In this document: one piece after another, positions 1 through 56,659 of the stretch
Numbering within the stretch: the first letter of the stretch is position 1
Layout: every line of letters starts with the position of its first letter
From: a virus
Lineage: Duplodnaviria > Caudoviricetes
Virus record (IMG/VR): IMGVR_UViG_3300037488_001588
Location: 1-60,234 of that record
Strand: one strand, 5' to 3'
Length of the DNA: 60,234 bases
Program-made: the position numbers and the translations under genes
Notes under the pieces: generated by a model
What the model saw: the letters and a program-made list of their open reading frames with translations, nothing else
What the model was told of the DNA's origin: nothing
The model's database searches: none

Positions 1-5
1 TTTGG

Positions 6-40
6 CTCTGCGCCCCCCCACCCCCTCTGCGACCCCCCCA
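6..40 (+). repeat. Two iteron-like repeats CTCTGCG(A/C)CCCCCC, part of candidate replication origin
   Basis: CTCTGCGCCCCCCC at 6-19 and CCTCTGCGACCCCCCCA at 24-40; reverse-complement copies at 60067-60081 and 60147-60163. Confidence 0.65.
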
Positions 41-48
41 AATGACCC

Positions 49-2298
49 CTACTTCTCTGGGGTCTTGACCAGCTTCAGGCCCGCCAACTGCGCCGCCGTG
101 AGCGTTGCGTTAAGATTTGGCAGCCAATAGCCGTTCCTGCCCTTGATCCGCGTCCGCTCGTGGCCGGCGAACTCTAGCGCGGCAGACAGGTCGGCGAAGG
201 CCTTCGGGCTGGACCTGACCGAGTACCGGTTCAGGACGTCGAGAGGCGACACATGCACCCAGCTGTCGCGGTCGGTGTTGCCGACCACGCGGACCGCGAT
301 GTCTTCCAGCGCATGCGACAGCTCGTTGGTGGCCTTGTGCCCTGCCGTGACCGTGGCATGCACCGCAGCCTCCGCAGGCGTCAGCCAGTGCTGCTCGTCG
401 ATCTCGGCGATCTCGGCCCACAGCTGCTGGAGCTCGATGTCGTGCTCGGGCTCACACCTCGCCACCGCCAGCGGCAGGAACCGCGTCTCACCCGTCTGGT
501 CGACCAAGAAGCCCTCCGGGTTGACCGTGGCGCCGAACGACGTCGTGCGTGGGCAGACGCTTTCGGTTCTGTCGTACGGCATGCGGTAGGTGTCGACCGT
601 GGTCGAAAGGAAATTGCGGAGCGCCGCCATGTCGGCCTTGCGGTAGATCGAGTCCAGCTCGCCCAGCTCCGTGATCGGCGTCCTCGTCGCCTTCTTCACC
701 ACGTCCCTCTCGTTCGGGCTGTCGAGGCGCAGGGACGCCCCGATCGTCACCCAGCCGGGCGGCAGGAGGGCGTTGAACCAGCGGCTCTTGCCGATGTTCT
801 GCGCCCCTTGCAGGGTCAGGCACATGCGCAGCTGCTCGGGGTCGGTCAGGCGGTAATTGTACCAGCCGGTGACGCACTGGATGCACCACCGCCTTATCGC
901 CATGTCACGCCAGCCATTGAGGGCCGGATCTCGCATGACGACAGTATCGTACAGCTCCTGAAGGCGCGACTTGCCGTCCCACTCGACGGCCTCGACCCAC
1001 TCGACAACAGGGCTGTATTTGTCGTTCTGGGCGACCGCGACGAGGGTCGCCCTGATCGCCTCCTTGTCTCTCATACCGCACCGAACGGCGGCATGGTGGA
1101 GCACGTCCAGAACATCTCCCGACGTGAGGTCTCCCTCGTACCCCCGAAGGGTGGCCTCGATCTGCTGCGAGATCGTGTTCAAGCGAACCACGAGCCCGAT
1201 CGCGTCCATGACATGCTCGACACGCGACGCCGTGGTGGCCTGCCTCATGTTCACAGCGTCTGCAGGCGTCCGGTCGGCGTCGGGGAGGTCACCCGGCCAC
1301 AGCTCGATCTCCCTGATGTGGGCCGCCAGACGCCCTGCGAGCCTCGTAGGAGCGATCCCGTTCTGGGTGGGCCTCGGGGCCGGCTCGGGCGGGAGAAGGG
1401 CTCTGGCGGGCGCCAGAGCCGCCGCCAGCGCCGCGATCGCGGCCGGCTGGATGTGGGCGTCGTCGAACGTGCCGGTCGAGACGGCGAACGCCCGCAGATC
1501 GGCCGTGGTCAGGTCTTGGCAGTGCGCGTGCAGGCACTTGAAGCCACCCGGGTTGCCGGGGTGGTACCCTGTGCCGTGCTCCGTGTCGCCTGTGTGCTGG
1601 TCCTGCTGCGGGCAGACCACCTCGTACCATCCGCTCGGGCTGGGCCCCGATCGGACACGCCCCTGCTCCTGCTGCCAGTCATACAGCGGATCGGACTTGC
1701 CGGGTGGCAGGGGAGGCGGCAGGGAGCCCATCTCTCTAGCCTCGCCGACCGTGACGCCGAGACCTGTTGCCAGCTCCGTCCAGCTGTACGTGACGTCCCA
1801 GCTCTCCTCTTCGAGGACGGCCTCGAACGGGCGCTCGTACTTGTGGTTGATCGAGCCGGGCACCCTCATGATCCGATCGGCCCGGATCGCGCCGGGGTCG
1901 GTGAGGCCTGCCGCCGCGATCGCCTCCATGAGGGCGGCGAACTGGCCGGGTTCGATCGGGTAGCTGAGCTTGAACCCCCACTGCTGGTTGCCGGGCGACG
2001 TGCGCAGCTTGTAGGTCGGCTTCAGCTTGATCAGGTCAGGGTCGACCTTTGTGCCGATGTCGTCGAGCACGACCACCCAGCTCAGCACCAGATCTGCAGC
2101 CTTGCGCGAGAGGACGGTCTGGCGGGGGATGTTGGCGACGGTGCTGACGCAGAAGTAGAGATCGTCGTAGGGCTGGTCCCGACCCGGGCGCCAGCGCCGG
2201 CTCTCGAAGCCGTCCCCTTTCGACGCGGTGACCACCACGCCTTGTGTTGTCTGATTGACTTTATCGAAGATGTGCGAGAGAAAGTTGTCGAGCTTCAC
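49..2298 (-). CDS. Primase-helicase: RepB-like primase domain, Zn-finger, VirE/VapE-type P-loop helicase
   Basis: N-terminal VVLDDIGTK...TSPGNQQWG...RIMRVPGSINHK primase motifs; CPQQDQH...CLHAHC zinc site; Walker A LQGAQNIGKS, ELGELD, DTYRMPY, FLVDQTGETRF typical of the VirE family. Confidence 0.85.
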   Translation of the reverse strand: MKLDNFLSHIFDKVNQTTQGVVVTASKGDGFESRRWRPGRDQPYDDLYFCVSTVANIPRQTVLSRKAADLVLSWVVVLDDIGTKVDPDLIKLKPTYKLRTSPGNQQWGFKLSYPIEPGQFAALMEAIAAAGLTDPGAIRADRIMRVPGSINHKYERPFEAVLEEESWDVTYSWTELATGLGVTVGEAREMGSLPPPLPPGKSDPLYDWQQEQGRVRSGPSPSGWYEVVCPQQDQHTGDTEHGTGYHPGNPGGFKCLHAHCQDLTTADLRAFAVSTGTFDDAHIQPAAIAALAAALAPARALLPPEPAPRPTQNGIAPTRLAGRLAAHIREIELWPGDLPDADRTPADAVNMRQATTASRVEHVMDAIGLVVRLNTISQQIEATLRGYEGDLTSGDVLDVLHHAAVRCGMRDKEAIRATLVAVAQNDKYSPVVEWVEAVEWDGKSRLQELYDTVVMRDPALNGWRDMAIRRWCIQCVTGWYNYRLTDPEQLRMCLTLQGAQNIGKSRWFNALLPPGWVTIGASLRLDSPNERDVVKKATRTPITELGELDSIYRKADMAALRNFLSTTVDTYRMPYDRTESVCPRTTSFGATVNPEGFLVDQTGETRFLPLAVARCEPEHDIELQQLWAEIAEIDEQHWLTPAEAAVHATVTAGHKATNELSHALEDIAVRVVGNTDRDSWVHVSPLDVLNRYSVRSSPKAFADLSAALEFAGHERTRIKGRNGYWLPNLNATLTAAQLAGLKLVKTPEK

Positions 2299-2342
2299 TG
2301 TTGCCCCCGAGCAATGTTGTAGTTCGTTCCGTGGTAGGAACC

Positions 2343-2372
2343 AACGCCCCGGCGATCACTCGCCGGGGCGTT
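2343..2372 (-). promoter_or_regulatory. 13-bp leader hairpin upstream of the primase gene
   Basis: AACGCCCCGGCGA-GTGA-TCGCCGGGGCGTT on the minus strand, GNRA loop, no U-tract. Confidence 0.6.
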
Positions 2373-2376
2373 CTTC

Positions 2377-2405
2377 GTTCTAGCCTTGTGTCGATGTCAC
2401 GGCAA
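2377..2405 (-). promoter_or_regulatory. Sigma70-type promoter for the primase gene
   Basis: TTGCCG-N17-TAGAAC; the -10 context GCTAGAAC fits the Caulobacter-type GCTANAWC consensus. Confidence 0.55.
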
Positions 2406-2407
2406 CG

Positions 2408-2698
2408 TCACTTCGAGCGACGCTCCTTGAACACCTTCTCTGCCTCGATCAGCTTGTCGCGGATCGCGGTCTCGTCGTAGTCGACCATGATATCCCCGAC
2501 GGTACGCACGCCCTCGTCGTCCTTCCAGACGCGCGTTCCGAACTGGGCGTCGATCCCCACCCACACACGATCGCCAGCGGCGGCGACCCTTGCCCGGTAT
2601 CTGGTCGTGCTGTACTCATTGACGATCCGCTGCACGGCAGCGTTCGCAGCCGCCCGAACGGCTATGGTCGCAAGCAATTCTTCCTTCGTCGGCTTCAT
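2408..2698 (-). CDS. Hypothetical protein (MKPTKEELL...)
   Basis: ATG at 2698 with GGAG RBS; abuts upstream gene. Confidence 0.6.
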   Translation of the reverse strand: MKPTKEELLATIAVRAAANAAVQRIVNEYSTTRYRARVAAAGDRVWVGIDAQFGTRVWKDDEGVRTVGDIMVDYDETAIRDKLIEAEKVFKERRSK

Positions 2699-2700
2699 CG

Positions 2701-2994
2701 CTACGTCTCCTTCGCTGCGCGGACCAGCACCCTCGCCGTGCCGGTGAGTTTCACGACCTGCCACTCGTCGGGGCACGTACGACGCGCCTGTCCTTCGTCG
2801 TTGTAGGCCGTATAGGCCGTGCCTGTGGGATCAACGAGGAGCCACGTCATCACTTCGACGTCCTTGTAGCGCGGCAGCGCCGCGAGGTGCGCGCGCGCGG
2901 CGGCAATCACCACCTTAGCTCTCGGGCTGAGGTTCACACGTGTGTCGTAGACGTCAAGCGCCTCTTCCAGCTCCTGCGGGTCAATGTCGCTCAT
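2701..2994 (-). CDS. Hypothetical protein (MSDIDPQ...)
   Basis: ATGA overlap with upstream gene, AAGGAG RBS. Confidence 0.65.
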   Translation of the reverse strand: MSDIDPQELEEALDVYDTRVNLSPRAKVVIAAARAHLAALPRYKDVEVMTWLLVDPTGTAYTAYNDEGQARRTCPDEWQVVKLTGTARVLVRAAKET

Positions 2995-3260
2995 TTCTTT
3001 ATCTCCTTCGATGCTGCTGCGATCATGGCGGCCCAAATGTCCGGCAATTCACCATCGTCGTCGGTCATGCAGGTCATGCCCGCGTTGATCATCGCCTGCG
3101 TCGGCTCCACCGGCACCACCGCCATCCCTGATTTCTCTAGTAGGGCCAGCATGTATTCGGCCTGCTCGATAAACAGTTCCGAAAACTTTTCGTATTCGAC
3201 TTCCTCGAAAGAGGCTCCAGCCCTCGCCATCACCTCTATGATCTTGGCTCGGTCGCTCAT
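2991..3260 (-). CDS. Hypothetical protein, paralogue A (MSDRAKIIEVMAR...AVVPVEPT)
   Basis: 89-aa ORF, ATGA-coupled; shares N-terminus and VPVEPT motif with the next gene. Confidence 0.7.
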   Translation of the reverse strand: MSDRAKIIEVMARAGASFEEVEYEKFSELFIEQAEYMLALLEKSGMAVVPVEPTQAMINAGMTCMTDDDGELPDIWAAMIAAASKEIKK

Positions 3261-3619
3261 ATCTCCGTCTCCTTTTTATAATCTGGATCGTACAGGTCAG
3301 GCCTTTCGGTGGCGGCCATATGATCCTCCCCCTTGCGATACTCTCCTTTGTCGAGCCATTCCCGTATCGGCTCGATCATGTTCGCCGGCTCAAGCATGGC
3401 GTTCGTCGGCTCCACAGGCACCACCGCCAGCCCTTTGGCTTGGAGGTGGGATTCGTAGGCGGTGAGGGCGGCGGAGGCGTCCGACTCAAACAAGCGCCAC
3501 GTTTCATCAACATACGCGCGGATCTCATCTTCGCTCACATCGCCCACGATGTTGTCGTCAAGGCGACGGCGGCAAATTCCACGCGCCATCACCTCTATGA
3601 TCTTGGCTCGGTCGCTCAT
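3225..3619. repeat. 36-bp exact direct repeat at 3225-3260 and 3584-3619
   Basis: CGCCATCACCTCTATGATCTTGGCTCGGTCGCTCAT twice; encodes the shared N-termini. Confidence 0.95.
3257..3619 (-). CDS. Hypothetical protein, paralogue B (MSDRAKIIEVMAR...AVVPVEPT)
   Basis: Start reassigned to ATG 3619 (RBS, ATGA overlap). Confidence 0.7.
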   Translation of the reverse strand: MSDRAKIIEVMARGICRRRLDDNIVGDVSEDEIRAYVDETWRLFESDASAALTAYESHLQAKGLAVVPVEPTNAMLEPANMIEPIREWLDKGEYRKGEDHMAATERPDLYDPDYKKETEI

Positions 3620-3783
3620 CTCTCCGTTTCCTTCGATGCGTAGCAGCCGCCCGAGACAAGGAGGCGTCTCCTGTCGAGCTGCAAGGTCATGTCGGCGCGC
3701 GCGATCTCGCACGCCTCCTTGGTGTTGAACGGTATCGACGTCATGGGCGCCGTCGTCGCCACCCACATGATCAGGATCCACAT
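3616..3783 (-). CDS. Small protein with hydrophobic N-terminus and PFxTKxxCE motif
   Basis: MWILIMWVATTAP...PFNTKEACE...GGC; AAGGA RBS. Confidence 0.55.
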   Translation of the reverse strand: MWILIMWVATTAPMTSIPFNTKEACEIARADMTLQLDRRRLLVSGGCYASKETER

Positions 3784-3968
3784 GACAGCATCCTTTCGGC
3801 TGTGGCGACCCACCACGCCGTCGACAGACGGAGCCGATAGCGCGCATCGATCTTCCTTGCCACGCCGCGCAGCGCGTCGCGACGCAACTTGGACGTGGCG
3901 ACGCCGGCCTCCTTCCGCAGGCGCCCGATGACCTGTCTCAGGTGCAGGCTTCTGTCGATGCTGCTCAC
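3771..3968 (-). CDS. Small basic hypothetical protein
   Basis: GTG start overlapping upstream stop (GTGA), GAGGA RBS. Confidence 0.45.
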   Translation of the reverse strand: MSSIDRSLHLRQVIGRLRKEAGVATSKLRRDALRGVARKIDARYRLRLSTAWWVATAERMLSCGS

Positions 3969-4147
3969 CGCGTGTTCCTCATCAGCGCGCCGATCTCCTC
4001 GTCCTCGTTGAGGAGGTCGACGATGCGATCGGCGAAGACGCTGTCGTACACGCGGGCGAGGGGATCGCTCCCCGCTCCGGGTCCACGCTCGTGGATCTCG
4101 AACATGAGACCGGCCGCAAGCGTGGTCGTTTCCTTGTAGTACTTCAT
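3965..4147 (-). CDS. Hypothetical protein (MKYYKETTT...)
   Basis: TGATG coupling, GAGGAGGA RBS. Confidence 0.6.
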   Translation of the reverse strand: MKYYKETTTLAAGLMFEIHERGPGAGSDPLARVYDSVFADRIVDLLNEDEEIGALMRNTR

Positions 4148-4443
4148 CACCACTGATCCTCCTCGTTGTTATTGTCGTCCGGGTTAGCCGTAATCTGGGC
4201 AACCAAGTCGTCGGCCCACCGCTCTTCCTCCACGATGTCGACCACATCCTCCATCGGCATGGGCTCGACGAACAGGCCCTCGGCCATCTTGCGCAGTTCG
4301 GCCAAGGGCGCGCTGATGTCGATCGGCGAGAGAGGGCCGTCGCCGCCGATCTCGATGAGGATCGCCTGCCTCGGTATGGCGGTGAAGCCGTTCTGGCCTT
4401 CATAGAAGGCGCGTATGGCCACCTCGATGACGAGCGTTTTCAT
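4147..4443 (-). CDS. Acidic hypothetical protein (MKTLVIEV...)
   Basis: ATGA coupling, AAGGGG RBS. Confidence 0.6.
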   Translation of the reverse strand: MKTLVIEVAIRAFYEGQNGFTAIPRQAILIEIGGDGPLSPIDISAPLAELRKMAEGLFVEPMPMEDVVDIVEEERWADDLVAQITANPDDNNNEEDQW

Positions 4444-4751
4444 GTCGACCCCCTTGGAAACAGTATCTCGCCGGTCGTCGCCGCACGCGACACGACCCAG
4501 TTCACCGCGCCGACCAATGACTTGCACTGGTACGTGTAGCCGCCGCGCCACGCGCCGTGGGCGCAGTTGCCGGTGCGCTTGACGACACCGATCAGGCGCC
4601 TCTCGCGGCCGGGCGGCGTGCCGTAGACGTCGTAGCTGTGGATGCCGTCGAGCGTCTCACCGAAGTACGTGACCTCGAGCGCCGGCATGAGGCTCGCCTT
4701 GCGGGCGTAGCCGTGGAAGTGTGAGGGCTTGACCCCGTGTCGCGTGCCCAT
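4440..4751 (-). CDS. Hypothetical protein (MGTRHGVK...)
   Basis: GAGGAGAG RBS before ATG 4751. Confidence 0.55.
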   Translation of the reverse strand: MGTRHGVKPSHFHGYARKASLMPALEVTYFGETLDGIHSYDVYGTPPGRERRLIGVVKRTGNCAHGAWRGGYTYQCKSLVGAVNWVVSRAATTGEILFPRGST

Positions 4752-4773
4752 GGCACTCTCCTCTGAAAGGTGA

Positions 4774-4803
4774 CAGGCCGCCCGCTTCCCGGCGGGCGGC
4801 CTG
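4774..4803 (-). promoter_or_regulatory. 12-bp intergenic hairpin
   Basis: CAGGCCGCCCGC-CGGGAA-GCGGGCGGCCTG between DUF932 gene and next gene; weak U-tract. Confidence 0.5.
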
Positions 4804-4813
4804 CCTGTGTGGG

Positions 4814-5626
4814 TCAGGCCGAGACGACGGAGACCGGCTTGACTTCGGCCGCCAGCTCGCTGGCCGCCGCCCACAGCTTGGTGTTGAACGAGACGTCGGC
4901 AGCGAGGGTGCGGATGCCGGACACGGCGCGACGCTGGCCGTTGGCACCCTGCCCACGCATGCCGCCGACGGTCAGGTTCTCCTGCACGCGGTTGAAGACG
5001 TTCCAGAGGCTGGCATTCTCGTCGTTGTAGCGACGGGGGCGAAGCACCTGCGCCGGCTGGATGTCGATCGAGGTGCCTCGGATCTCAAGGGCCTTCTGGG
5101 CGAAGCGCGAGACCTGATCGAGGGACAGGACGATCTTCGACCAGTCGCGAGCGATCTCCAGCGTCTTGGGCAGCTGCGACTGGATCATCGCGATGCCGGT
5201 GTGCAGGCGATCGAGCTGGTGGGCACCGACGTGGCGTAGGTTCACATGGAAACCGCTCTCGGCGACCGTCATGCCGTTCAGGCAGACGAGGCGGAAGATG
5301 CCGGCCGACAGGCTGAAGCCGCTGGTGCGATCGTGGCTGTTGCGCAGGAGCACCTCGGGGACGAGGTCGCCCAGCTCGCGGTGGGGCTCGGCGCCGACCT
5401 TGCGCATGCGCAGCTCGTGGATCGCGTAGTTGCGACCCTCGACCGAGCGCTTGTAGCCCTCGCGGACCTTTGCCACCTCGAAGCCCATGACGCGCATGGC
5501 GCGCACGGCCTGATAGGTGGGGAGGTAGGCGTACTTGGCGGACACGTTGTCGGCCGCCTGCGTCGCGAACACTGAGGGCGCCTTGGCGCGGATGGCATCG
5601 TCGTTGAGGAAACCGTCGAACGGCAT
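4814..5626 (-). CDS. DUF932 family protein
   Basis: APSVFA...SAKYAYLPT, HELRMR, LRNSHDRTSGF.LSAGIFRLVCLNG, LWNVFNRVQENL, N.KLW motifs characteristic of DUF932. Confidence 0.85.
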   Translation of the reverse strand: MPFDGFLNDDAIRAKAPSVFATQAADNVSAKYAYLPTYQAVRAMRVMGFEVAKVREGYKRSVEGRNYAIHELRMRKVGAEPHRELGDLVPEVLLRNSHDRTSGFSLSAGIFRLVCLNGMTVAESGFHVNLRHVGAHQLDRLHTGIAMIQSQLPKTLEIARDWSKIVLSLDQVSRFAQKALEIRGTSIDIQPAQVLRPRRYNDENASLWNVFNRVQENLTVGGMRGQGANGQRRAVSGIRTLAADVSFNTKLWAAASELAAEVKPVSVVSA

Positions 5627-5648
5627 GGGAAGTCTCCGATTGGTAGGT

Positions 5649-5708
5649 GGCCTGTCTCATCAGGGACGGTAGGCCGTGTCCGTCCGACGCCCTCGCGGGC
5701 GTTTCGAC
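5649..5708 (-). ncRNA. Type II hammerhead ribozyme with loop I / 3'-tail pseudoknot
   Basis: GUC GAAA CGCCC-GCGA-GGGCG UC^ GGACGG-ACACGGCCUA-CCGUCC CUGAUGA GAC AGGCC: complete core, three perfect stems, GGCCU:AGGCC pseudoknot; predicted cut between 5686 and 5685. Confidence 0.93.
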
Positions 5709-5968
5709 TAGCTCAGCTGTTCGTAGAGGTTCACCGTGATCGTTTCGAGTTCGTCCTTGACCTTCTTCAAGGCGACCAGACGAGCCTGCATCTCGCGCGC
5801 GGCGGTCTCGGCGGCAGAAGAGCTGATCGTGTAGTAGTCCCGCCCGTGGCAAGTGATGTCACGAACTGCGGTGATGGCGTTCTCGATCGCGTCGAGGGCG
5901 GTCGCGTATTCCTTGAGAAGGACTTTGCCAGAGGTGCCGTTGCTGTGGATCTGGGGGAACTGGGTCAC
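5708..5968 (-). CDS. Hypothetical helical protein
   Basis: 86-aa ORF with GTG start preceded by the conserved leader. Confidence 0.7.
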   Translation of the reverse strand: MTQFPQIHSNGTSGKVLLKEYATALDAIENAITAVRDITCHGRDYYTISSSAAETAAREMQARLVALKKVKDELETITVNLYEQLS

Positions 5969-6015
5969 TGGGAAATCTCCGTTGCGGCCGGGTCAGGAGC
6001 GACCCGGTAATGATG

Positions 6016-6044
6016 CTTCTAAGGCCTCAGTACGGGACTGTCAA
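6016..6044 (-). promoter_or_regulatory. Sigma70-type early promoter
   Basis: TTGACA-N17-TAGAAG, followed by 5' hairpin CCGGGTC/GACCCGG. Confidence 0.7.
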
Positions 6045-6052
6045 CACCCCTC

Positions 6053-6373
6053 TCAGGCCGCGAGGGCGGACGTGTCGTGGATGTACTTGACCTCGGCGGA
6101 CCACGCAGGGTGGCAGACGAGATACAGCGACTTGTTGACGGGGCAGAGCTGGTTGCGCGCCCACGACGGGACCGGGCCGCCGGCCGCCACGACCGCCGCG
6201 AGGCGGCGCCCGTTCTCGTAGTTGATCTGGTGCGCCGTGGTCCACCGATCGTAGTCGGCGTCGAAGGCCTTGCCGGCGCGGTAGTCGGTCCAGCCGGCAT
6301 GCAGCCCGGCGGCGATCGGGTCGCGCATCGGGGTGCGGGCGTTGCGGTAGGTCTCGCGGCGGATGTTCTGCAT
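6053..6373 (-). CDS. Hypothetical protein (MQNIRRET...)
   Basis: ATG 6373 preceded by the conserved leader. Confidence 0.7.
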   Translation of the reverse strand: MQNIRRETYRNARTPMRDPIAAGLHAGWTDYRAGKAFDADYDRWTTAHQINYENGRRLAAVVAAGGPVPSWARNQLCPVNKSLYLVCHPAWSAEVKYIHDTSALAA

Positions 6374-6391
6374 GGGAAGTCTCCGTGGTAG

Positions 6392-6450
6392 TCCAGCGAG
6401 GTTGCTGGCGGATCGAGCCCCCGGAGGGGCTCTCACCGTAAGGAACCTCA
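6392..6450 (-). ncRNA. Unidentified structured intergenic RNA (two hairpins plus a long-range pairing)
   Basis: GAGGUU...CGG-UGA-GAGCCCC-UCCG-GGGGCUC-GAU-CCG-CCAGC-AACCUC-GCUGG; GAGGUU is complementary to loop AACCUC. Confidence 0.5.
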
Positions 6451-6663
6451 GAATTCGGTGGGGCGGTTGATCACCGCCTCGGCTTGACGGCGGGCCGCGA
6501 CCTCCTCGATCGTGGCCTCGCGGATGTCGACCAGATGCTCGGCCGGGTACAGGCTGTCGAAGCGCACGACGGCGTTGGTCAGGGCGTCCGCGACCATGAC
6601 GCGGCTGCGGTTCACGAGAGCGAAGCAGACGTTGGCGCGAGAGGTGAGGATGAAGGTGGCCAT
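6448..6663 (-). CDS. Hypothetical protein (MATFILTS...)
   Basis: ATG 6663 preceded by the conserved leader. Confidence 0.7.
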   Translation of the reverse strand: MATFILTSRANVCFALVNRSRVMVADALTNAVVRFDSLYPAEHLVDIREATIEEVAARRQAEAVINRPTEF

Positions 6664-6707
6664 TTGGGAAGTCTCCGTGGTAGGGCGGCACCAGCGCCGC
6701 CCGACAG

Positions 6708-6736
6708 TCATGCCATAGTAGCGCCAGTATCGTCAA
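6708..6736 (-). promoter_or_regulatory. Early promoter, TTGACGATACT type
   Basis: TTGACGATACTGGCGCTACTATGGCA, near-identical to the element at 7170-7204; A-tract upstream; -10 non-canonical. Confidence 0.5.
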
Positions 6737-6755
6737 GCGCCCTTTTTGCGGCGGA

Positions 6756-6953
6756 TCACGACACCACCTCGCAGTGCTCGGCCCAGACCCGGATCGTGCG
6801 CCCGCTCTTGTCGAGCTTCACGACGTGGACGTCGGACAGGTAGAAGCTGCCATCGGCAGCGCTCTGCCGCTTCGCCTCGGTCGTGCGGACGACCTCTCCG
6901 TAGCGGTCGCCGCGCATCCAGCGATCGGTGTAGGCGGGGATCTGGACCCTCAT
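6756..6953 (-). CDS. Hypothetical small beta-rich protein (MRVQIPAYTDRWMRGDRYG...)
   Basis: GAGGAG RBS before ATG 6953; alternative start 7001. Confidence 0.6.
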   Translation of the reverse strand: MRVQIPAYTDRWMRGDRYGEVVRTTEAKRQSAADGSFYLSDVHVVKLDKSGRTIRVWAEHCEVVS

Positions 6954-7003
6954 GACGTGCTCCTCTCGTACTGCTTGCGATACTTGGCCGGTGGTGCTCA
7001 TGA

Positions 7004-7147
7004 CTAGAAATTCCAGCACTTGGCGCCGTGCTCGGCCGCGATCTTGCGGGCCTCGCGCTTGCCGGCCACCGGGTAGACGGTGCCGCCGACCGGGCGGTTG
7101 CTGTCGGTGATGCGGACGGTCTTGTCGTTGCAGTAGTGGGCGTACAT
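7004..7147 (-). CDS. 47-aa hypothetical protein (MYAHYCND...)
   Basis: ATG 7147 preceded by a leader variant. Confidence 0.6.
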   Translation of the reverse strand: MYAHYCNDKTVRITDSNRPVGGTVYPVAGKREARKIAAEHGAKCWNF

Positions 7148-7169
7148 GGGAAGGTCTCCGTTGTTGGTC

Positions 7170-7204
7170 CGATACTTGTGCCATAGAGGCACAAGTATCG
7201 TCAA
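7170..7204 (-). promoter_or_regulatory. Early promoter embedded in a perfect 13-bp inverted repeat (operator or cruciform)
   Basis: CGATACTTGTGCC-ATAGA-GGCACAAGTATCG at 7170-7200, overlapping TTGACG (-35) on the minus strand. Confidence 0.65.
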
Positions 7205-7215
7205 CCCCCCTATTC

Positions 7216-8529
7216 TCACCTTCTGAGCGCCGCCCACAGCCCGTCCTGCGTCGCCGCCTTCTGGCCCATCTTGCTCACGATCAGGGGCTCGACCGTGTTC
7301 TTGGCCACCGGCTCGTAGCTGTAGCACTGTGCTGTCGCCTGATCGCGACGGGCGACGCGGCCAAGCATTTGCAGGTACAGCTCCATGTCGTCTGGGACAG
7401 ACCACCACGCGATCGTGTTTCCACCGTGCTGCATGTTGAGGCCGTGGCCCATCGAGGCAGGCGAGACCGGCAGGACCGGGATCTCTTTCCGGTTCCAGCG
7501 GGCGATCGTGTCCTCGTCGTTCTTCGAGCCTGCGCCGATGAACGGGATGCCCGGCCACCGCCTCTGCATCATCGCGAGCTGCTCGCGGTAATGGTATGCG
7601 ATCAGGAGCGGCTTGCCGTTCATTTCATCGACGATGTCGGCCAGCACGTTCAGGCGGAACGGGTCGAACTCCACAGGCTCGCCCCTGTTGTCGTAGACGA
7701 ACCCGCCCGACGAGATCTGCAGCAGCTTGTTGCGCAGGACGCCTGCGGAGCCCGCCACGATGTCATGGTCGCTCAGCGTACTCTCTGCCCTGAACCTCTC
7801 GTAGAGGGCCCGTACGGCCGGCGGGAGGGTCACCTCGATCGGCGTACGCACGACGGGCGGCAGCTCGACCGCGTCGTCCTCCAGAACGTAGGTGAAAGGC
7901 CTGATGATCTCGGCCAGCTCGGCAGGCGTGTCGCCGAACGGCATCCAGTTGTGCTCGTCTCGATCGATCGGATAGAAGTACTTCCGCAGCCACTTGTCGT
8001 GACTGCGTCCGAACATCGTGAGCCCGACCGCGTTCGCCATGCCGTACAGGCTCGTCAAACCGTTCGGCGCCGGGGTGCCGGTACCGCCCGCCCAGATCTT
8101 GAAGCCGGCCTTGCGGACCGCCTTCTGGCGCTTGCCGGTCGGACTGCGCAATTTGCTCAGCTCGTCCCAATAGCAGGCCTCGCATCGGTGCTTTGTCTGG
8201 AGGATCGCGGGCACCATGTCGTGGTTGACCAGCAGCACGTCCGTCTTGGCGTCGATCGCCGCCTGTCGCTTGGCAGGCGAGATCTCGCCCGTGCAGAGTG
8301 CCATGCTCAGCGGGATGCCCCACTTCTCGGCCTCCTGCCGCCAGACGTTATTGATGACGCGAAGAGGCGCGCCGATCATGACGCGCTTCACGATCTTCTG
8401 CTCGATCAATGCCTGCGCCGTCAGGAGGTACGTGAGTGTCTTGCCGGTGCCAGTGGCACTAAACAGCATGCTATGATCTCGTTCAAACATGAAGTCCGCC
8501 GCCTCATGTTGATAGCTGGCGGGCTTCAT
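7216..8529 (-). CDS. SNF2-like superfamily 2 helicase
   Basis: YQ Q-motif, TGTGKT Walker A, APLRV, WDELSKL, GTGTPAPNG, HGLNMQ, Q..GRVAR; start reassigned to ATG 8529. Confidence 0.9.
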   Translation of the reverse strand: MKPASYQHEAADFMFERDHSMLFSATGTGKTLTYLLTAQALIEQKIVKRVMIGAPLRVINNVWRQEAEKWGIPLSMALCTGEISPAKRQAAIDAKTDVLLVNHDMVPAILQTKHRCEACYWDELSKLRSPTGKRQKAVRKAGFKIWAGGTGTPAPNGLTSLYGMANAVGLTMFGRSHDKWLRKYFYPIDRDEHNWMPFGDTPAELAEIIRPFTYVLEDDAVELPPVVRTPIEVTLPPAVRALYERFRAESTLSDHDIVAGSAGVLRNKLLQISSGGFVYDNRGEPVEFDPFRLNVLADIVDEMNGKPLLIAYHYREQLAMMQRRWPGIPFIGAGSKNDEDTIARWNRKEIPVLPVSPASMGHGLNMQHGGNTIAWWSVPDDMELYLQMLGRVARRDQATAQCYSYEPVAKNTVEPLIVSKMGQKAATQDGLWAALRR

Positions 8530-8807
8530 GGCAGCAGCATGAGGTTCAGGATTGCGCTGAACTGCTCCCGGGTGCGGACCACGTAGTGGTCGTGACCCAT
8601 CTTCAGTATACGGGTCCGCCACACTTCCTGCAGCGGCTCCAGAGGCGCCTTCGGCGTCTTGAATTCGAGGAAGACGACCGCGTACGGCAGCAACAGGATA
8701 CGATCGGGCACGCCGGCATTGCCGGGGCTCACCCACTTCAACAAGTACCCGCCGGCCTTGGTCGTCTGCTCGCGGCACCACTTCTCCAGATCAGCTTCGT
8801 ATGCCAT
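8526..8807 (-). CDS. VRR-NUC domain nuclease
   Basis: E.DLEK, KWVSPGNAGVPDRI, FLEFK.P, PLQ motifs. Confidence 0.9.
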   Translation of the reverse strand: MAYEADLEKWCREQTTKAGGYLLKWVSPGNAGVPDRILLLPYAVVFLEFKTPKAPLEPLQEVWRTRILKMGHDHYVVRTREQFSAILNLMLLP

Positions 8808-8809
8808 AC

Positions 8810-8859
8810 TTGACCCTCTGTTGTGCTTGAGATATATCCCGGTCTTCCGCAGCGTTCAA
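8810..8859. promoter_or_regulatory. Overlapping divergent promoters sharing a palindromic -10
   Basis: Plus strand TTGACC(8810)-N17-TATATC(8833); minus strand TTGAAC(8859)-N17-TATATC(8836); both use GATATATC at 8831-8838. Confidence 0.65.
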
Positions 8860-8874
8860 TGGAGTTTCAGCATC

Positions 8875-9054
8875 ATGGCAAGCCGTCTGGCCAAAGGCAC
8901 CAAGACCACGCGGGTACCGTCACAGGTGCCGGATGCGTGGTTGAAGGTGATCAACAAGGCCGCCGCGATCCGCAACATCAGCCGTTCGCAGTACATGTCG
9001 ACCGTAGCGTACGAGCAGGCCCAGCTGGACGTGGCCAAGGCCGCGAAGGGCTAG
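8875..9054 (+). CDS. Ribbon-helix-helix DNA-binding protein
   Basis: TTRVPSQVPDAWLKVINKAAAIRNISRSQYM: beta-helix-turn-SRS-helix pattern; GGAG RBS. Confidence 0.7.
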   Translation: MASRLAKGTKTTRVPSQVPDAWLKVINKAAAIRNISRSQYMSTVAYEQAQLDVAKAAKG

Positions 9055-9063
9055 CGTCGGCCG

Positions 9064-9246
9064 ATGGCGACGAAGAAGACCCGGCCGGCGATGAACGGCT
9101 ACGGCAGCATGTTCAGGGGCCGGCACGAGCCCGCCGAGCCCGCGAGCAAGGTACGAGTGCTGAAGGGCGCGGAGTTCGAGAGACGCAAGCGAGAGCTGGA
9201 AGAACGTATCGACAAACCAAAACCGAAAAACGAAATCAACTTCTGA
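9064..9246 (+). CDS. Hypothetical protein
   Basis: 60-aa ORF filling the gap in the operon. Confidence 0.55.
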   Translation: MATKKTRPAMNGYGSMFRGRHEPAEPASKVRVLKGAEFERRKRELEERIDKPKPKNEINF

Positions 9247-9256
9247 GGAGAGAAGC

Positions 9257-10381
9257 ATGCCTACCATCCATCACAAGTACGGCGGATCGAATGCCAGCAT
9301 ATGGCTCAACTGCGCGGCGGCGCCCGGCCTGATCGAGAAGGTGCCGCGCCGCCCCGCAGGGCCTGCCGCCGAGCACGGCACGGCGCAGCACGACGTCATG
9401 GAGGCCCTGATCAACGACCCCGATCTGGTGCCGGAAAAGTTCCTCGGGACCAAGATGGCCAACGGCATCGTGATCGACGAGAACTATATGGGCGCCATCA
9501 ACACCGCCCTCGACGCTTGGGTCGAGATCCAAGACACGTTCCCGAGCGCGACGTTTATCGCGGCCGAGCGCATGGTCATGCTGACCGACGAGGCCGGCGG
9601 AACAAGCGACGGCGCGTTAGTCGAGGGTAATCGCGGCGGCATCGTCGACTTTAAATTCGGGCAAGTTGAGGTTGCGGCGACGTCAGAACAAAATCTTTTC
9701 TACCTGACTTGCGCTCGTAAGAGCCTGCCAGAATTCGCCAAGGTTGAAATCTTTGAGAGCTACATCATCCAGCCCGCCCTAGACCCCGTCGTCGACAAGG
9801 TCGTGTACCCGGCGAGCGTTCTCGACCGTTTCGAGCAGACCGCCTTCACCGCGATCGCGGCGAGCAAGGCGCCCAACCCGAGACCGGTCGAGGGCGACTG
9901 GTGCAAGTGGTGCGACGCGAAGCTGGTGTGCCCGGCCAAGACCGGACGCAACGAGACGCTCACGCACCCGTCCGAGCACATCCTCAACCTCGCGACGCTG
10001 GGCGAGCAGGCTGCGCGCTTGCGCCCCCTGCTGAAGAGCGCGGAGAAGTGGCTGGAAGAGGCCGAGGAGCGCATCCACCACGAGCTGACGAACGGCGTCG
10101 CGGTGCCGGGCTGGAAGCTGGTCGACAAGCGCGCCGTGCGTGTGTGGAAGAGCGAGCCCGAGGCGATCCTTGCGCTGAAGCGCTTGAACATCTCGCCGGA
10201 CAAGTACATGATCACTACCCTCATCTCGCCCCCCAAGGCGGAAGAGTTGCTGAAGAAAAAGACCGTAGACGAAATGACCAACAAGGTTTCCTCGGGCACC
10301 ACTGTGGCGCTCGCGGATGACAAGCGACCGGCCGTGCTACCGGTCGCTGCGATAGCAGCACACCTCAAGAGACTGAAGTAG
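9257..10381 (+). CDS. Cas4-like / DUF2800 PD-(D/E)XK exonuclease
   Basis: H.KYGGS.A..WLNC, A.HGT..H, GGTSD, IVDFKFG, IIQP, CKWC....VCP, VPGWKLV. Confidence 0.85.
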   Translation: MPTIHHKYGGSNASIWLNCAAAPGLIEKVPRRPAGPAAEHGTAQHDVMEALINDPDLVPEKFLGTKMANGIVIDENYMGAINTALDAWVEIQDTFPSATFIAAERMVMLTDEAGGTSDGALVEGNRGGIVDFKFGQVEVAATSEQNLFYLTCARKSLPEFAKVEIFESYIIQPALDPVVDKVVYPASVLDRFEQTAFTAIAASKAPNPRPVEGDWCKWCDAKLVCPAKTGRNETLTHPSEHILNLATLGEQAARLRPLLKSAEKWLEEAEERIHHELTNGVAVPGWKLVDKRAVRVWKSEPEAILALKRLNISPDKYMITTLISPPKAEELLKKKTVDEMTNKVSSGTTVALADDKRPAVLPVAAIAAHLKRLK

Positions 10382-10393
10382 AAGGACCGACAA

Positions 10394-11152
10394 ATGACCA
10401 GCAACATCGTATCGTTCAAGGGCAACCTGCCCACGAACAACATCACCGTCTTCCAGAAGGCTCTTGCGCAGACCAAGCAGGCTGTCGGCGTCGATGCGTC
10501 CGGCGGCAAGCAGTTCCTGAAGCTCGCCAAGAACGGCGGCTACTGGGTGTACGGACCGAAGGACACCGAGGTCGAGGAAGGCAGCCGCTGGGCGATCAAC
10601 CCGATGTCCCTGAAGACGGGCTTCGTGGCGTGGAAGGGCGGCAAGCCGGTCGGCGAGCGCATGGGTTCCATCTTCAACCCGCCGATCACACGCGACTCGC
10701 TCGACGACGTCGGTGCCAAGTGGGACGAGGCGATCGCCTTCGATCTCGTCTGCGTCAGCGGCGAGGATGAGGGAACCGAGACCCGCTACAACGCCAACAG
10801 CTACGGCGGCCGGAAGGCGTTCACGGCTGTCATGGACGACCTCATGAAGCAGACGACCGTCGATCCGCAGAACATCGTGCCGATCGTCGAACTCAAGAGC
10901 GACAGCTACGATCATCGGGAGTACGGCAAGACCTACAACCCGCTGTTCAATATCGTGGGCTGGTCCAGCATGGGTGCGCCGCCGGCAGCCGAGGAGCCGG
11001 CCGACGAGCCTGCCGAGGCGCCTGTCGCCGAGACCAAGGCCGAGGCTCCGAAGGAAGAGCCTGCGCGCCGTCGTCGTGGCGCGGTGACCGACGTGGCTCC
11101 CGAGCCGGCGAAGGAAGAGCCTGCCCGCCGCCAGCGTCGGCGCGCCAGCTAG
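10394..11152 (+). CDS. Putative single-stranded DNA-binding protein
   Basis: Lies between exonuclease and polymerase; aromatic beta-rich body (SYDHREYGKTYNP.F.IVGW) and a low-complexity tail. Confidence 0.6.
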   Translation: MTSNIVSFKGNLPTNNITVFQKALAQTKQAVGVDASGGKQFLKLAKNGGYWVYGPKDTEVEEGSRWAINPMSLKTGFVAWKGGKPVGERMGSIFNPPITRDSLDDVGAKWDEAIAFDLVCVSGEDEGTETRYNANSYGGRKAFTAVMDDLMKQTTVDPQNIVPIVELKSDSYDHREYGKTYNPLFNIVGWSSMGAPPAAEEPADEPAEAPVAETKAEAPKEEPARRRRGAVTDVAPEPAKEEPARRQRRRAS

Positions 11153-11162
11153 TATCCGGGGC

Positions 11163-11228
11163 GCACGTCCCGGCAACGGGACGTGCGGTTTACCCGCCGG
11201 CAGTGTGTGGCTGCCGGCGGGTCTTTTT
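11163..11228 (+). terminator. Tandem hairpins; the second resembles an intrinsic terminator directly upstream of the polymerase gene
   Basis: GCACGTCCCG-GCAA-CGGGACGTGC, then ACCCGCCGGCAG-N7-CTGCCGGCGGGT-CTTTTT. Confidence 0.7.
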
Positions 11229-11250
11229 CCTGCTACCACGGGAAACTATC

Positions 11251-13302
11251 GTGAACCTCAATCTCGATTTCGAGACGGGCGCCACCGTCGACCTGACCGT
11301 GACCGGCGCCTACATCTACGCGGCGCACCCCGACACGCACGTCCTCTGCGCGTCGTACAGTCTGGACGACGGCAAGACCGTGAAGCGTTGGCGTGCGTGG
11401 GCTGGCGATAAGATGCCGGCCGATCTCGCTGCCGCGCTCGATGACGACACGGTCGAGATCCACGCATGGAACGCGGCCTTCGAGCGGCTGATCCTGCGAC
11501 ACGTCGTGAAGCGCGAGACACCGATCCGCCGCTTCCGCTGCACCATGGCGCGCGCCCGTACCATGGCACTGCCCGGCAAGCTCGAACTCTGCGCCAAGGC
11601 CCTCTGCCTGCCGCAGCAGAAGGGCAACAACGCCATCATGATGAAGTGGTGCAAGCCGCTCCCGAGCGGTGAGTGGGCCGACGACGATGGCGAGTACGAC
11701 AAGCTCTGCGACTACTGCGACGACGACGTCCGCACCGAGATCGCGATCGGCACCATGCTGCGCCCGCTCAGCGACGAGGAGTGGGAGGATTACCACATCA
11801 ACGAGGAGATCAACGATCGCGGGCTGCCGCTCGACATGGATCTCGTGCGCGCCGCGCAGAACTACGCCGCCGACGAGATGGTCGAGATCAACGCCCGCAT
11901 CTCGATGCTCACACGAGGCGTCGTCACCACGGTCAAGCAGCACGCGAGGATCAAGACGTGGCTTGGCGAACGCCTGCCACCCGGCATGGAGCTGGCTCCC
12001 CGAAAGGGCAAGATCTCGTTCGATAGGAGCGTGCGCGAGTACTACCTCTCAGTGGAGAATGAAGATGTCATCACAGGCGACATTCGCGACTTCATACAGC
12101 TGGTACACGATGGTGGCCGAGCGAGCACCGCTAAGTTCGCTGCTATGCAGGCTCGCTCGGGACCGGATGACCGTTTGCGCGGCGCATACGTCTTTGCAGG
12201 GGCCGGACAGACTGGTCGTTTTAGTTCGACAGGTGCCCAGACCCACAACTTCATCCGGAAGAAGCTCGCCAACATAGAAGACGTCGTCGAGCGGATTCTG
12301 AGCAAGGCCCCCAAGGCCGACGTGATCAAGGCGGCGAGCTTCGACAAGAACGGCGCGCTGGTATTTGACGACGGCGAGCAGCTCGCGAAGGCATACGACA
12401 TGCTCACGATCATGTCCCGCACGCTGCGCCCGTCGATCGTGGCACCGATCGGCAAGACGCTGGTCTGGGGCGACTGGTCGTCGATCGAGGCCGTCGTGCT
12501 GCCGTGGCTCAGCAAGGAGAACACGGCCAATCAGGTGCTTGAGGTCTACGCCTCGGGCGCTGACCTGTACCGGCATCAGGCTCTGTCGACGTTCAACCTG
12601 CAGTCCATCGATCAGGTCACGAAGGACCAGCGACAGGCCTGCAAGGTGCAGATCCTGTCGCTTGGTTTCGGCGGTGGCGTAGGTGCCTTCCAAGCGATGT
12701 CGCGCAACTATGGCCTGCGTGTGAGCGACGAGCAGGCCGACCAGTACAAGGTGACGTGGCGTCTCTCCAACCCGTGGGCGCAGCGCTTCTGGAACGCTCT
12801 TGAGACGGCGGCATTCAACGCGGTACGCACGCCCGAGACCGTGTTCGATGCCGGTCGCGTGTCGTACTTCTTCGCGCAGGGATCGCTGTGGTGCATGCTG
12901 CCGAGCGGTCGCACGATCTGCTACCCGTTTGCCAAGCTGGAGACGGTCGAGGACCGCTGGGGCTCATCTCTCAAGGTCACCGCGATCAAGGGATCGTTCC
13001 ACCCCGCCGCAGGCTCGGACGGCAGCGACTGGCCCCGCATGACGCTGTGGGGCGGGTTCCAAGCCGAGAACGTGACGCAGGCCGAGGCGGCGTCAGCGCT
13101 GCGCTACGCGCGCCGGGAGAGCTACGCCTGCGACTGGTACCAGATCGGCGACACGCACGATGAGCTGCTGTGGGAGGTCGAGGAGAGGGAGGAGGCCGAG
13201 GCCAAGGCCGCGATGCTCGACATCATGACGACCCTGCCCGAGACGTTCGCCGGCCTTCCGTTGCGGGCCGAGATCAGCTCGGGCGTGGTCTACGGCAAGT
13301 GA
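11251..13302 (+). CDS. polA: DNA polymerase family A with 3'-5' exonuclease
   Basis: LDFET (Exo I), AWNAAFE, YC..DV, TGRFSS, motif A DWSSIE, motif B RQACKVQILSLGFGGG, ENVTQA, motif C HDE; GTG start at 11251. Confidence 0.92.
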   Translation: MNLNLDFETGATVDLTVTGAYIYAAHPDTHVLCASYSLDDGKTVKRWRAWAGDKMPADLAAALDDDTVEIHAWNAAFERLILRHVVKRETPIRRFRCTMARARTMALPGKLELCAKALCLPQQKGNNAIMMKWCKPLPSGEWADDDGEYDKLCDYCDDDVRTEIAIGTMLRPLSDEEWEDYHINEEINDRGLPLDMDLVRAAQNYAADEMVEINARISMLTRGVVTTVKQHARIKTWLGERLPPGMELAPRKGKISFDRSVREYYLSVENEDVITGDIRDFIQLVHDGGRASTAKFAAMQARSGPDDRLRGAYVFAGAGQTGRFSSTGAQTHNFIRKKLANIEDVVERILSKAPKADVIKAASFDKNGALVFDDGEQLAKAYDMLTIMSRTLRPSIVAPIGKTLVWGDWSSIEAVVLPWLSKENTANQVLEVYASGADLYRHQALSTFNLQSIDQVTKDQRQACKVQILSLGFGGGVGAFQAMSRNYGLRVSDEQADQYKVTWRLSNPWAQRFWNALETAAFNAVRTPETVFDAGRVSYFFAQGSLWCMLPSGRTICYPFAKLETVEDRWGSSLKVTAIKGSFHPAAGSDGSDWPRMTLWGGFQAENVTQAEAASALRYARRESYACDWYQIGDTHDELLWEVEEREEAEAKAAMLDIMTTLPETFAGLPLRAEISSGVVYGK

Positions 13303-13617
13303 TCAGCGCGGGGGCGTCGGCACGGTTACCCGCCATTGCTCTAGGCCCGTGAGCCGCCTGTCGTGATTGAGGATGGTGGCGGACGTCACGCGCCCCTCCC
13401 CGATGACCTCTGTGATCCTGAGGTTGAGGGTGTTGATCGAGTTGGTGAGTTCCTTGATGTTCCCCAGCGTCTGGACGGCGACGTACGTCACGACGCTGAT
13501 GAACAGCAACAGGATCGTCGCGGTTATGCGGAAGAGGGCCTGAAATGCAGGGGTGTTGAACATCTCGACAGTCGCCTTCAAGGAATCCCCGCTAAGTCTA
13601 TTTGGATTGTTTGGCAC
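13303..13617 (-). CDS. Single-pass membrane protein with coiled coil (possible lysis accessory)
   Basis: One hydrophobic helix ITATILLLFISVVTYVAV followed by heptad repeats. Confidence 0.55.
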   Translation of the reverse strand: MPNNPNRLSGDSLKATVEMFNTPAFQALFRITATILLLFISVVTYVAVQTLGNIKELTNSINTLNLRITEVIGEGRVTSATILNHDRRLTGLEQWRVTVPTPPR

Positions 13618-13661
13618 GAGTGCATTCCCCTCTACGCATATCTCGACGATGTTTTTCTGAG

Positions 13662-55655: not shown

Positions 55656-55855
55656 ATGCTGGGCCCTCGCCATTCAAAGAACTTGGCATCCTTGCCGCAG
55701 ATATCGGCGCCCTCGTTGTAGCGCTCGTACCATGCGTCGTTCTGGGTGCGGATCAGCGGCTTACCGGTCACCAAGCTCACCGTCATGACACTCGCCGGTC
55801 TCGCGCAATCCGATCGCGCGCTGTCGAAATGCTTACAACCGTAACAGAACTTCAT
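55652..55855 (-). CDS. Small four-cysteine (Zn-binding) protein
   Basis: MKFCYGCKHF......C...R......CG.DAKFFE. Confidence 0.65.
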   Translation of the reverse strand: MKFCYGCKHFDSARSDCARPASVMTVSLVTGKPLIRTQNDAWYERYNEGADICGKDAKFFEWRGPSI

Positions 55856-56238
55856 TCGGCGCACTCCGCTGCGATGCCGGCATAGCCCGCGAGGTCGACG
55901 TAGTTGTCGGGGTTGTGGCTGCCGCTCTTCAGGCGGGCGATCTTCAGCAGGCACATCATCACAGCGACGTCGTGCGCGGTGAAGTGCCGGTAGCCCGTCA
56001 CGGCATCGACACCAAAGTAGGCGTTCCACAGGTCGGCGATGTTCTGGTGATTGACGCGCTTGTCGCCGTGCTGCTTGGCACGATCGCCACCCGTGAGTTC
56101 CAAGGCGGTGCGGAGCGTCGTCTCGCAGACACTGGGCGCGACGGGCGAGCCCGCCGCAACGCCCTTTCGTTCGCAGTTACACTCCCATCGATCGTCCAGC
56201 CCGCAGCGCGGGCATCTGTCACACGCAGTCATCGTCAT
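55852..56238 (-). CDS. DUF6378-like protein
   Basis: GDR...HG....NH..IA.LW.AY, DVA.MM.LLK.AR, D.YVD.AGYA. Confidence 0.75.
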   Translation of the reverse strand: MTMTACDRCPRCGLDDRWECNCERKGVAAGSPVAPSVCETTLRTALELTGGDRAKQHGDKRVNHQNIADLWNAYFGVDAVTGYRHFTAHDVAVMMCLLKIARLKSGSHNPDNYVDLAGYAGIAAECAE

Positions 56239-56528: not shown

Positions 56529-56659
56529 GCGCCACTATGGCGCTGGCCGCGCCGGGGCGCAAGGGGGAGAGGTCGATGAAGCTCGCCTGCCATTTCGTTG
56601 GCCACGGGCTGAAACCCGAAAAATATCCCGTGTTCTTTCGCGCCTCTCAGGTCGGGTTG

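Follow-up and report, generated by a model that had tools for sequence, protein, structure and literature searches.

A predicted pseudoknotted type II hammerhead ribozyme upstream of a DUF932 gene in a phage genome

Perreault et al. (2011) reported that type II hammerhead ribozymes with a pseudoknot are common in bacteria and prophages, where they often flank single genes. They cleave in vitro and in Escherichia coli, and the available text of that report presents their role as unproven (PMC3088659). Olzog et al. (2021) subsequently used cyPhyRNA-seq and described three type II hammerheads that cleave in vivo in Desulfovibrio vulgaris (PMC8782182). A search of the literature from 2012 onwards for hammerhead ribozymes in the polycistronic context of prophages found nothing relevant. 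The sequence-only reading of the DNA considered here had given the same background, namely pseudoknotted type II hammerheads in bacterial and phage intergenic regions with a role yet to be proven, in agreement with what is available of Perreault et al. (2011).

The window, that is, the whole stretch of DNA analysed, comprises 60,234 bases and is a complete IMG/VR virus record. Its hammerhead shares with the RF02276 hammerheads of Perreault et al. (2011) the topology, the core, a short stem II, the register of the pseudoknot and an intergenic placement within a phage operon. Nothing structural sets it apart from the examples in the accessible part of that report, although the window has a single copy and theirs form gene-flanking clusters (PMC3088659). 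As in the triple ardA arrangement of Agrobacterium tumefaciens, the ribozyme lies between a stop codon and the next leader, and the role proposed in both cases is the processing of a polycistronic phage mRNA; unlike the ardA cluster as described there, this locus has one ribozyme, and the neighbouring gaps contain plain hairpins (PMC3088659). The hammerheads of D. vulgaris belong to the same family and are also near phage-like genes, but they are backed by direct RNA-end evidence in the text available, whereas the window copy is known from sequence alone (PMC8782182). The locus is a further clean example of a family with an unproven role in phages. What is new is an orthologue with changes confined to loops, the equivalence of the ribozyme to hairpins that occupy the same slot elsewhere, and the exchange of an ORF at the ribozyme edge. 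Two further systems offer a functional parallel, RiboJ being an engineered type III hammerhead insulator and the RNase III sites of the T7 early genes relying on a host enzyme. The cut predicted here would resemble both in preceding a cistron and leaving a hairpin-ended, context-decoupled message; the window copy is of type II, unlike RiboJ, and by prediction cuts itself, unlike the T7 sites.

CheckV rates the window as 100% complete. The minus strand carries nearly all of its genes, including those for the terminase, portal, virion, tail fibre and endolysin, which run from about 57.7 kb down to 13.7 kb. A short plus-strand block (approximately 8875-13302) encodes a DUF2800 exonuclease, a nucleotidyltransferase and a family A DNA polymerase (PolA), together with a 59-aa ORF that has a weak, sub-threshold TacA1-like match. 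It is followed by a second minus-strand block (8781-49) of tightly packed genes with coding-like GC3, which includes an SNF2-type helicase (7216-8781), a VapE-type primase-helicase (49-2298) and several small ORFs. Since it contains these two enzymes, the block was assigned to a replication module. The ribozyme lies within it, and had been placed by the sequence-only reading between two early genes; the two genes are indeed there, but the description 'early' gives way to that of a replication module. No phage RNA polymerase or tRNA was seen in the window, no terminator-like site was found on the minus strand between 8781 and 5709, and a sigma-70 promoter scan of positions 1-14000 returned no sites.

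A DNA-level search for relatives of the window gave nothing useful. The PolA protein is no more than 38% identical to that of any deposited phage, and on this basis the phage is considered novel; identity to the nearest cultured phages, which infect Ralstonia, Sinorhizobium and Brevundimonas, is about 30%. The host is plausibly a GC-rich proteobacterium. Elsewhere in the window, a full-length match to RF02496 (the Rhizobiales sRNA Atu_At1; 72.5 bits against a gathering threshold of 60) lies on the minus strand at 56561-56672, after a small proline-rich ORF and directly ahead of a DUF6378 gene (55852-56562). This may hint at a Rhizobiales host.

The hammerhead is complete and occupies positions 5709-5646 of the minus strand, matching RF02276 (Hammerhead_II) over model positions 1-66. 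The score of 38.5 bits exceeds the gathering threshold of 37 by a margin of only 1.5 bits; the E-value is 2.6e-4 for the entire window against all 4227 Rfam families and 6.1e-8 for RF02276 alone. The sequence-only reading had named the element a type II hammerhead and suggested an Rfam search as a check, which it passes. Read 5' to 3', the open stem II (3 bp; GUC, G5708-U-C5706, paired with GAC, G5656-A-C5654) leads into GAAA (5705-5702), of which GAA (5705-5703) forms the second core strand. There follows a 6-bp stem III hairpin, inclusive of the A15.1-U16.1 pair (5702-5697 with 5692-5687), closed by the GNRA tetraloop GCGA (5696-5693). Beyond the predicted cleavage site at 5686/5685 come a 6-bp stem I hairpin (GGACGG, 5685-5680, with CCGUCC, 5669-5664) with a 10-nt loop (5679-5670), and the catalytic core strand CUGAUGA (C3-A9; 5663-5657). 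Beyond the GAC strand of stem II lies the 3' tail, in which AGGCC (5653-5649) pairs with GGCCU of loop I (5675-5671) as a 5-bp pseudoknot.

A scripted check confirmed all 20 base pairs and every core residue, with C3, U4, G5, A6, N7, G8 and A9 at 5663-5657 and G12, A13 and A14 at 5705-5703. The stems are without mismatch, and the core-adjacent pairs 10.1-11.1 (G10.1-C11.1), 1.1-2.1 and 15.1-16.1 are intact; these are the three pairs demanded by the acceptance rules in the available text of Perreault et al. (PMC3088659). As required of H17, the residue at the cleavage site is C5686 and not G, and it completes a GUC triplet, after U16.1 (U5687) paired to A15.1 (A5702). In both the Rfam alignment and the core check, C17 is C5686, which places the predicted cut between 5686 and 5685. 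From the order of the elements, loops close stems I and III while stem II is open, so the permutation is that of type II, and a custom hammerhead descriptor agrees. To be recognized as a pseudoknot, the bases that directly follow stem II had to form at least 4 bp with loop I; the window copy has 5 bp, beginning at the first tail base. The Rfam model ignores the pseudoknot, which is thus independent support. In each of these respects (core, triplet, perfect stems I-III, pseudoknot and cleavage position) the earlier description proved accurate.

The bare core pattern, with no demand on the stems, has one match in the window against 0.03 expected, and 3 of 100 shuffles contained at least one. The custom descriptor identifies 5709-5646 as the sole hammerhead of the window, and no other ribozyme was found in the window at Rfam E<=1. 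The exact stem I and core pattern had no matches in viral contigs and none in genome contigs. On these sequence features, the element is almost certainly a hammerhead ribozyme. The folding energy of the isolated 64-mer is not below that of shuffles (z = -1.49; 15 of 200 shuffles were equally stable). The nested minimum-energy fold (-25.4 kcal/mol) replaces stem I with the pseudoknot helix and does not return the hammerhead, because the algorithm cannot model a pseudoknot; the canonical three-stem fold comes to -21.7, to which the pseudoknot duplex adds roughly -7.5 (a rough sum). Such a failure is expected of a pseudoknot-blind algorithm, and was counted neither for nor against the hammerhead.

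An orthologous copy is present in a metagenome contig, L331, at the same place and with a score of 39.4 bits (RF02276). The DUF932 product of L331 is identical to that of the window at 162 of 181 residues (90%), at which point the contig ends, and the coding DNA is 88.8% identical. The two ribozymes differ at three of 61 positions, all of them among the nine unconstrained loop positions: one change is in the stem III tetraloop, where GCAA replaces GCGA and the loop is still GNRA, and two affect unpaired bases of loop I. The 40 paired and 12 core positions are all unchanged. Were changes distributed at random, the probability of all three being in the nine free positions would be 0.0023 (hypergeometric). 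Just past the pseudoknot, the leader of L331 differs by substitutions and indels. Of the present results, this pattern speaks most strongly for selection on the fold, and it comes from a single comparison, L331 being the only orthologue found and showing no compensatory changes.

Hammerheads with this architecture are numerous in viral contigs. One narrow DNA pattern, in which stem II was fixed as GUC/GAC, matched at least 132 stretches, and the matches listed include 145 distinct viral instances, counting the window copy. Amongst the matches listed, the 6-bp stem I seen in the window is the commonest length (48/145), its 10-nt loop I is the joint commonest (33/145), and a pseudoknot of at least 4 bp occurs in 88 of 145, among them all 33 of those with a 10-nt loop I. 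Surroundings are also alike: amongst the matches listed, a same-strand ORF of at least 40 aa starts within 150 nt in 136 of 145 (median 25 nt; 27 nt here), and an open frame upstream ends within 10 nt of the ribozyme start in 113, as it does in the window. The window copy was aligned with 43 of the other 144 instances among the matches listed, selected for a compact stem III and for stem I and loop I lengths of 6-7 bp and 8-12 nt, respectively. In this 44-sequence alignment, 95.4% of cells pair, against 33-41% with the partners slid, although the pairing in stems I and III partly reflects how the members were chosen. The members were not chosen for the pseudoknot, which covaries in the same register in these 44 sequences from the matches listed; both partners change at three of its five pairs, and pairing is retained in 83.6% of cells.

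The matches listed also include a second class (within L032-L163) with a loop I of 3-5 nt, in which the usual pseudoknot is mostly lacking (none of the 33 with a 3-nt loop has it). The tails in this class often start with CAAC, CACA or CATCAG, by eye and uncounted. This suggests that the short-loop class uses a different tertiary contact.

The borderline Rfam score, and the inactivity of some candidates tested by Perreault et al., as the available text records (PMC3088659), would fit a non-cleaving element, either an inactive relic or a look-alike that arose by chance. Against this, the core is perfect with 20 of 20 pairs and a chance expectation of 0.03 for the core pattern; amongst the matches listed the geometry is the commonest and the pseudoknot covaries, and L331 differs in loops only. 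A relic or look-alike is very improbable. Phage hammerheads have been known since 2011 and are very common, which makes this a well-supported ordinary case; the window copy is an ordinary type II hammerhead, and leaves knowledge of hammerheads unchanged. Family membership and conservation make cleavage in vivo likely.

The ribozyme occupies a true intergenic gap. Upstream is an 86-aa ORF (5968-5708, minus strand) with coding-like GC by codon position (0.56/0.41/0.83), for which searches gave neither a Pfam or PHROG family nor any relative in viral contigs. Its TAG (5710-5708) overlaps the first two conserved bases of the ribozyme and the first base of stem II. Downstream is the DUF932 gene (5626-4814, minus strand; 270 aa; PF06067, E 3.7e-25; phrog_12094, E 1e-44), with GC by codon position of 0.66/0.44/0.91. 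Its ATG, at 5626, is 27 nt past stem II, and a GGAG is found at 5637-5634. The ribozyme had been said to fill the space from the upstream stop codon to the DUF932 leader, and these positions bear this out. A long ORF (5085-5852) that would span the ribozyme was rejected as non-coding, its GC3 being 0.45.

The position of the stop codon is relevant to a reading in which the ribozyme is a conditional switch that tunes DUF932 translation, its cleavage or its later refolding being modulated by terminating ribosomes, by Mg2+ or temperature, or by competition for the stem I 5' strand GGACGG by CCGUUC (DUF932 codons 2-3). With the stop codon reaching into stem II, a ribosome that terminates there has to unfold the 5' half of the ribozyme; in addition, GGACGG is paired with the start region in the nested fold of the 3' product. 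However, the overlap is common: amongst the matches listed, a TAG lies over the first ribozyme bases in 51 of 145, the window copy included, and in 43 of these it closes a real-looking frame of at least 50 codons. The alternative pairing involves a 6-mer and includes one G-U pair, by estimate likely to arise by chance (fold z = -0.02), and the Shine-Dalgarno sequence is unpaired in the ribozyme. A switch of this kind is quite improbable.

The leader of the DUF932 gene contains a ribosome-binding cassette, CGGAGACUUCCCA (5638-5626, minus strand), which ends in the A of the ATG. As CGGAGAYUUCCCA (13 nt), it is found in four exact copies on the minus strand (5626-5638, 5969-5981, 6373-6385 and 6665-6677), every one of which ends at a start codon or a little before it; the four genes concerned are consecutive (starts 6663, 6373, 5968 and 5626), and the sequence looks like a repeated ribosome-binding cassette. 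The number of matches does not rise above a chance control (5, with a control mean of 2.85; 17 of 100 shuffles reached 5), a control that permits two mismatches and is blind to the occurrence of four exact copies within 1.05 kb at start codons. Each other gap in this run of genes has a stable GC-rich hairpin 6-11 nt 5' of the GGAG, none with a U-tract. These are located at 7170-7200 (13 bp), 6680-6705, 6398-6449 and 5988-6007 (7 bp) and, after the DUF932 gene, at 4774-4803 (12 bp). The hammerhead gap is the exception. The pseudoknot ends 11 nt 5' of the GGAG, and the ribozyme is therefore in the slot used by hairpins elsewhere.

We consider that the element is probably a functional type II hammerhead, which cuts and insulates in a gap of a leftward replication-module operon; we infer transcription of the minus strand from the orientation and packing of the genes. 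As RNA polymerase passes, the 64-nt motif would fold into three stems and the loop I-tail pseudoknot, and would cleave the leftward operon mRNA co-transcriptionally between C5686 and G5685. The upstream message would then end 22 nt past its stop codon, in the stem III GNRA hairpin with a 2',3'-cyclic phosphate, and the 5' end of the DUF932 message, a 5'-OH 59 nt ahead of the AUG, would lie at the base of the stem I hairpin. A split mRNA, with a 5'-OH and a hairpin at the front of the DUF932 message, had also been proposed in the sequence-only reading, and it would be the most plausible consequence. Such a cut would physically uncouple the upstream and DUF932 cistrons, and would generate ends that are poorly handled by the 5'-monophosphate-dependent and 3'-exonucleolytic decay enzymes of the host. 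By analogy with the 5'-end dependence of RNase E and with ribozyme insulators such as RiboJ, 5'-OH and hairpin ends should slow decay and decouple a cistron. The ribozyme would in this way be a host-independent processing and insulating signal, and the plain hairpins in the neighbouring gaps appear to do likewise. For the physiological effect that we infer, a stabilizing or insulating role, we regard the chances as evenly balanced.

The association of the ribozyme with DUF932 was examined from both directions. Of 166 known instances, the custom descriptor recovers 161, and 1.33 Mb of reversed sequence contains three matches to it. It detected no hammerhead at the 110 closest viral DUF932 loci or at 12 DUF932 loci from bacterial genomes. 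Of 80 metagenome DUF932 loci, some of which are on the same contigs as the viral ones, 79 are without a ribozyme, the one exception being L331. Among 80 loci of the L078 type and seven of the L037 type, real ribozymes were found only in the respective seed; weak 'type III' matches in L262-L264 overlap the coding start and were taken as false positives. Relatives with approximately 50% DUF932 identity show no ribozyme even at Rfam E<=1, and five related virus records, searched whole, contain no hammerhead. These include the 70.6-kb genome of a relative with 52% identity, in which the gap before the DUF932 gene is 20 nt. In L332-L336, the gap contains one to three strong plain hairpins, followed in L332 and L334 by a near-identical ribosome-binding sequence. 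Judging from these loci, DUF932 genes do not as a rule require the ribozyme. The presence of plain hairpins in the same slot, both in neighbouring gaps and in relatives, makes this a convenient system in which to compare ribozyme and hairpin function.

In the other direction, 87 of the 136 ORFs downstream of hammerheads among the matches listed were scanned (one truncated ORF and 47 from short-flank loci were left out, and that of the window was scanned separately). No Pfam family was found for 72 of these 87. Amongst the matches listed, the 87 include three DUF932 proteins, one ArdA, five AAA_5-type ATPases (four of which also match phrog_1297) and one AAA, two phi29-like single-stranded DNA-binding proteins, and one each of Mor (below the cut-off), Cpn10 and GP88. 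ArdA and DUF932 thus both recur downstream of ribozymes (1/87 and 3/87, respectively, among the matches listed), and at the 132 hammerhead loci among the matches listed all three DUF932 genes are directly downstream of the ribozyme. The loci concerned, L037, L057 and L078 (DUF932) and L073, are on unrelated viral contigs and represent three very diverged DUF932 subfamilies and one ArdA. The DUF932 protein of L037 is 32% identical to that of the window, and those of L057 and L078 have no BLASTP similarity to it. A conserved hammerhead-DUF932 link was rejected, as ribozymes are rare when the search starts from DUF932 loci and the linked DUF932 proteins are very diverged. We read the adjacency as one that recurs but is not conserved, ribozyme and gene both favouring the same kind of accessory-gene operon.

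Comparison of the window with L331 also reveals the replacement of a gene. The gap 5' of the small ORF (6045-5969 in the window) is 92% identical in L331, and similarity resumes exactly at the TAG/ribozyme start, from 5710 onward, with 91% identity over 600 nt. The ORF between differs, being 86 aa in the window (5711-5968) and 65 aa in L331 (1220-1414), and BLASTP of one against the other gave no alignment at E<=100. The junctions of the swap are the edge of the ribosome-binding cassette and the TAG/ribozyme start. As homology flanks an unrelated ORF, one gene has been replaced between two conserved intergenic elements; with a single comparison, this amounts to one swap event. Promoter-stem-loop (PeSL) cassettes are described as mediating modular shuffling in T4-type phages in the accessible text of two reports (PMC2839356, PMC4122927). 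The present locus is similar in having conserved intergenic cassettes beside small variable ORFs, with replacement junctions at cassette edges. It differs in that the phage is of an unrelated type and one of the cassettes is a ribozyme, and the likeness to the PeSL system as described there is one of analogy only (PMC2839356, PMC4122927). Of the PeSL-type features, the locus has a repeated cassette with hairpins and, in one comparison, one cassette-bounded ORF replacement; the promoter scan gave 0 sites. It is conceivable, if rather doubtful, that in this phage lineage a plain hairpin or hammerhead together with the common ribosome-binding cassette constitutes an interchangeable module, which would serve both in mRNA processing and as a homologous joint for swaps of small ORFs. 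If true, self-cleaving ribozymes help to shuffle phage accessory genes.

The same junctions bear on whether the ribozyme, although active, is mainly a passenger or a recombination joint, one of several interchangeable intergenic modules whose sequence conservation permits the exchange of small ORFs between phages, with little or no benefit to DUF932 expression. The break in homology between the window and L331, exactly at the TAG/ribozyme edge and the ribosome-binding cassette with an unrelated ORF between, is consistent with this, as are the sporadic occurrence of hammerheads amongst DUF932 relatives and the presence of plain hairpins, or nothing, in the same slot in relatives. However, the swap is one event in one comparison, and the substitution pattern in L331 points to selection on the catalytic fold and not to mere sequence identity. 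In addition, we know of no mechanism for autonomous movement of a 60-nt ribozyme, which was counted against this reading. It is unlikely to be correct, and a ribozyme that cuts and insulates remains the preferred interpretation.

Several other repeats are present in this region. A 46-nt repeat (76% identical) occurs in two gaps, at 6701-6746 and 7169-7214; on the minus strand it contains (C/G)TTGACGATACT and then CTATGGCA, and the copy at 7169-7214 forms a perfect 13-bp hairpin. This could be a promoter, operator or processing element. In both phages, the spacer before the small ORF (6045-5969 in the window; 1143-1220 in L331) contains TTGAC(A/G), 17-18 variable bases and TAGAAGCAT, which may be a promoter, with a poor -10-like hexamer. 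Further along the block, a 50-nt direct repeat (96% identical; 3225-3274 and 3584-3633) spans the start regions of two tandem minus-strand genes, from ribosome-binding site into the first codons; these small genes are apparently paralogues. A weaker third copy is located near 2986-3014.

A literature search on DUF932 yielded nothing on ribozymes, and a sequence search gave no relative of solved structure. An AlphaFold model of the DUF932 protein (pLDDT 77.9) had no Foldseek match at E<=0.001, and its best VIA-align Z of 5.8 is inside the stated noise of that tool. Within the family itself, C115, N117, H132 and N212 are invariant in an alignment of 17 DUF932 sequences, and an NSHD motif is conserved in an alignment of 10.
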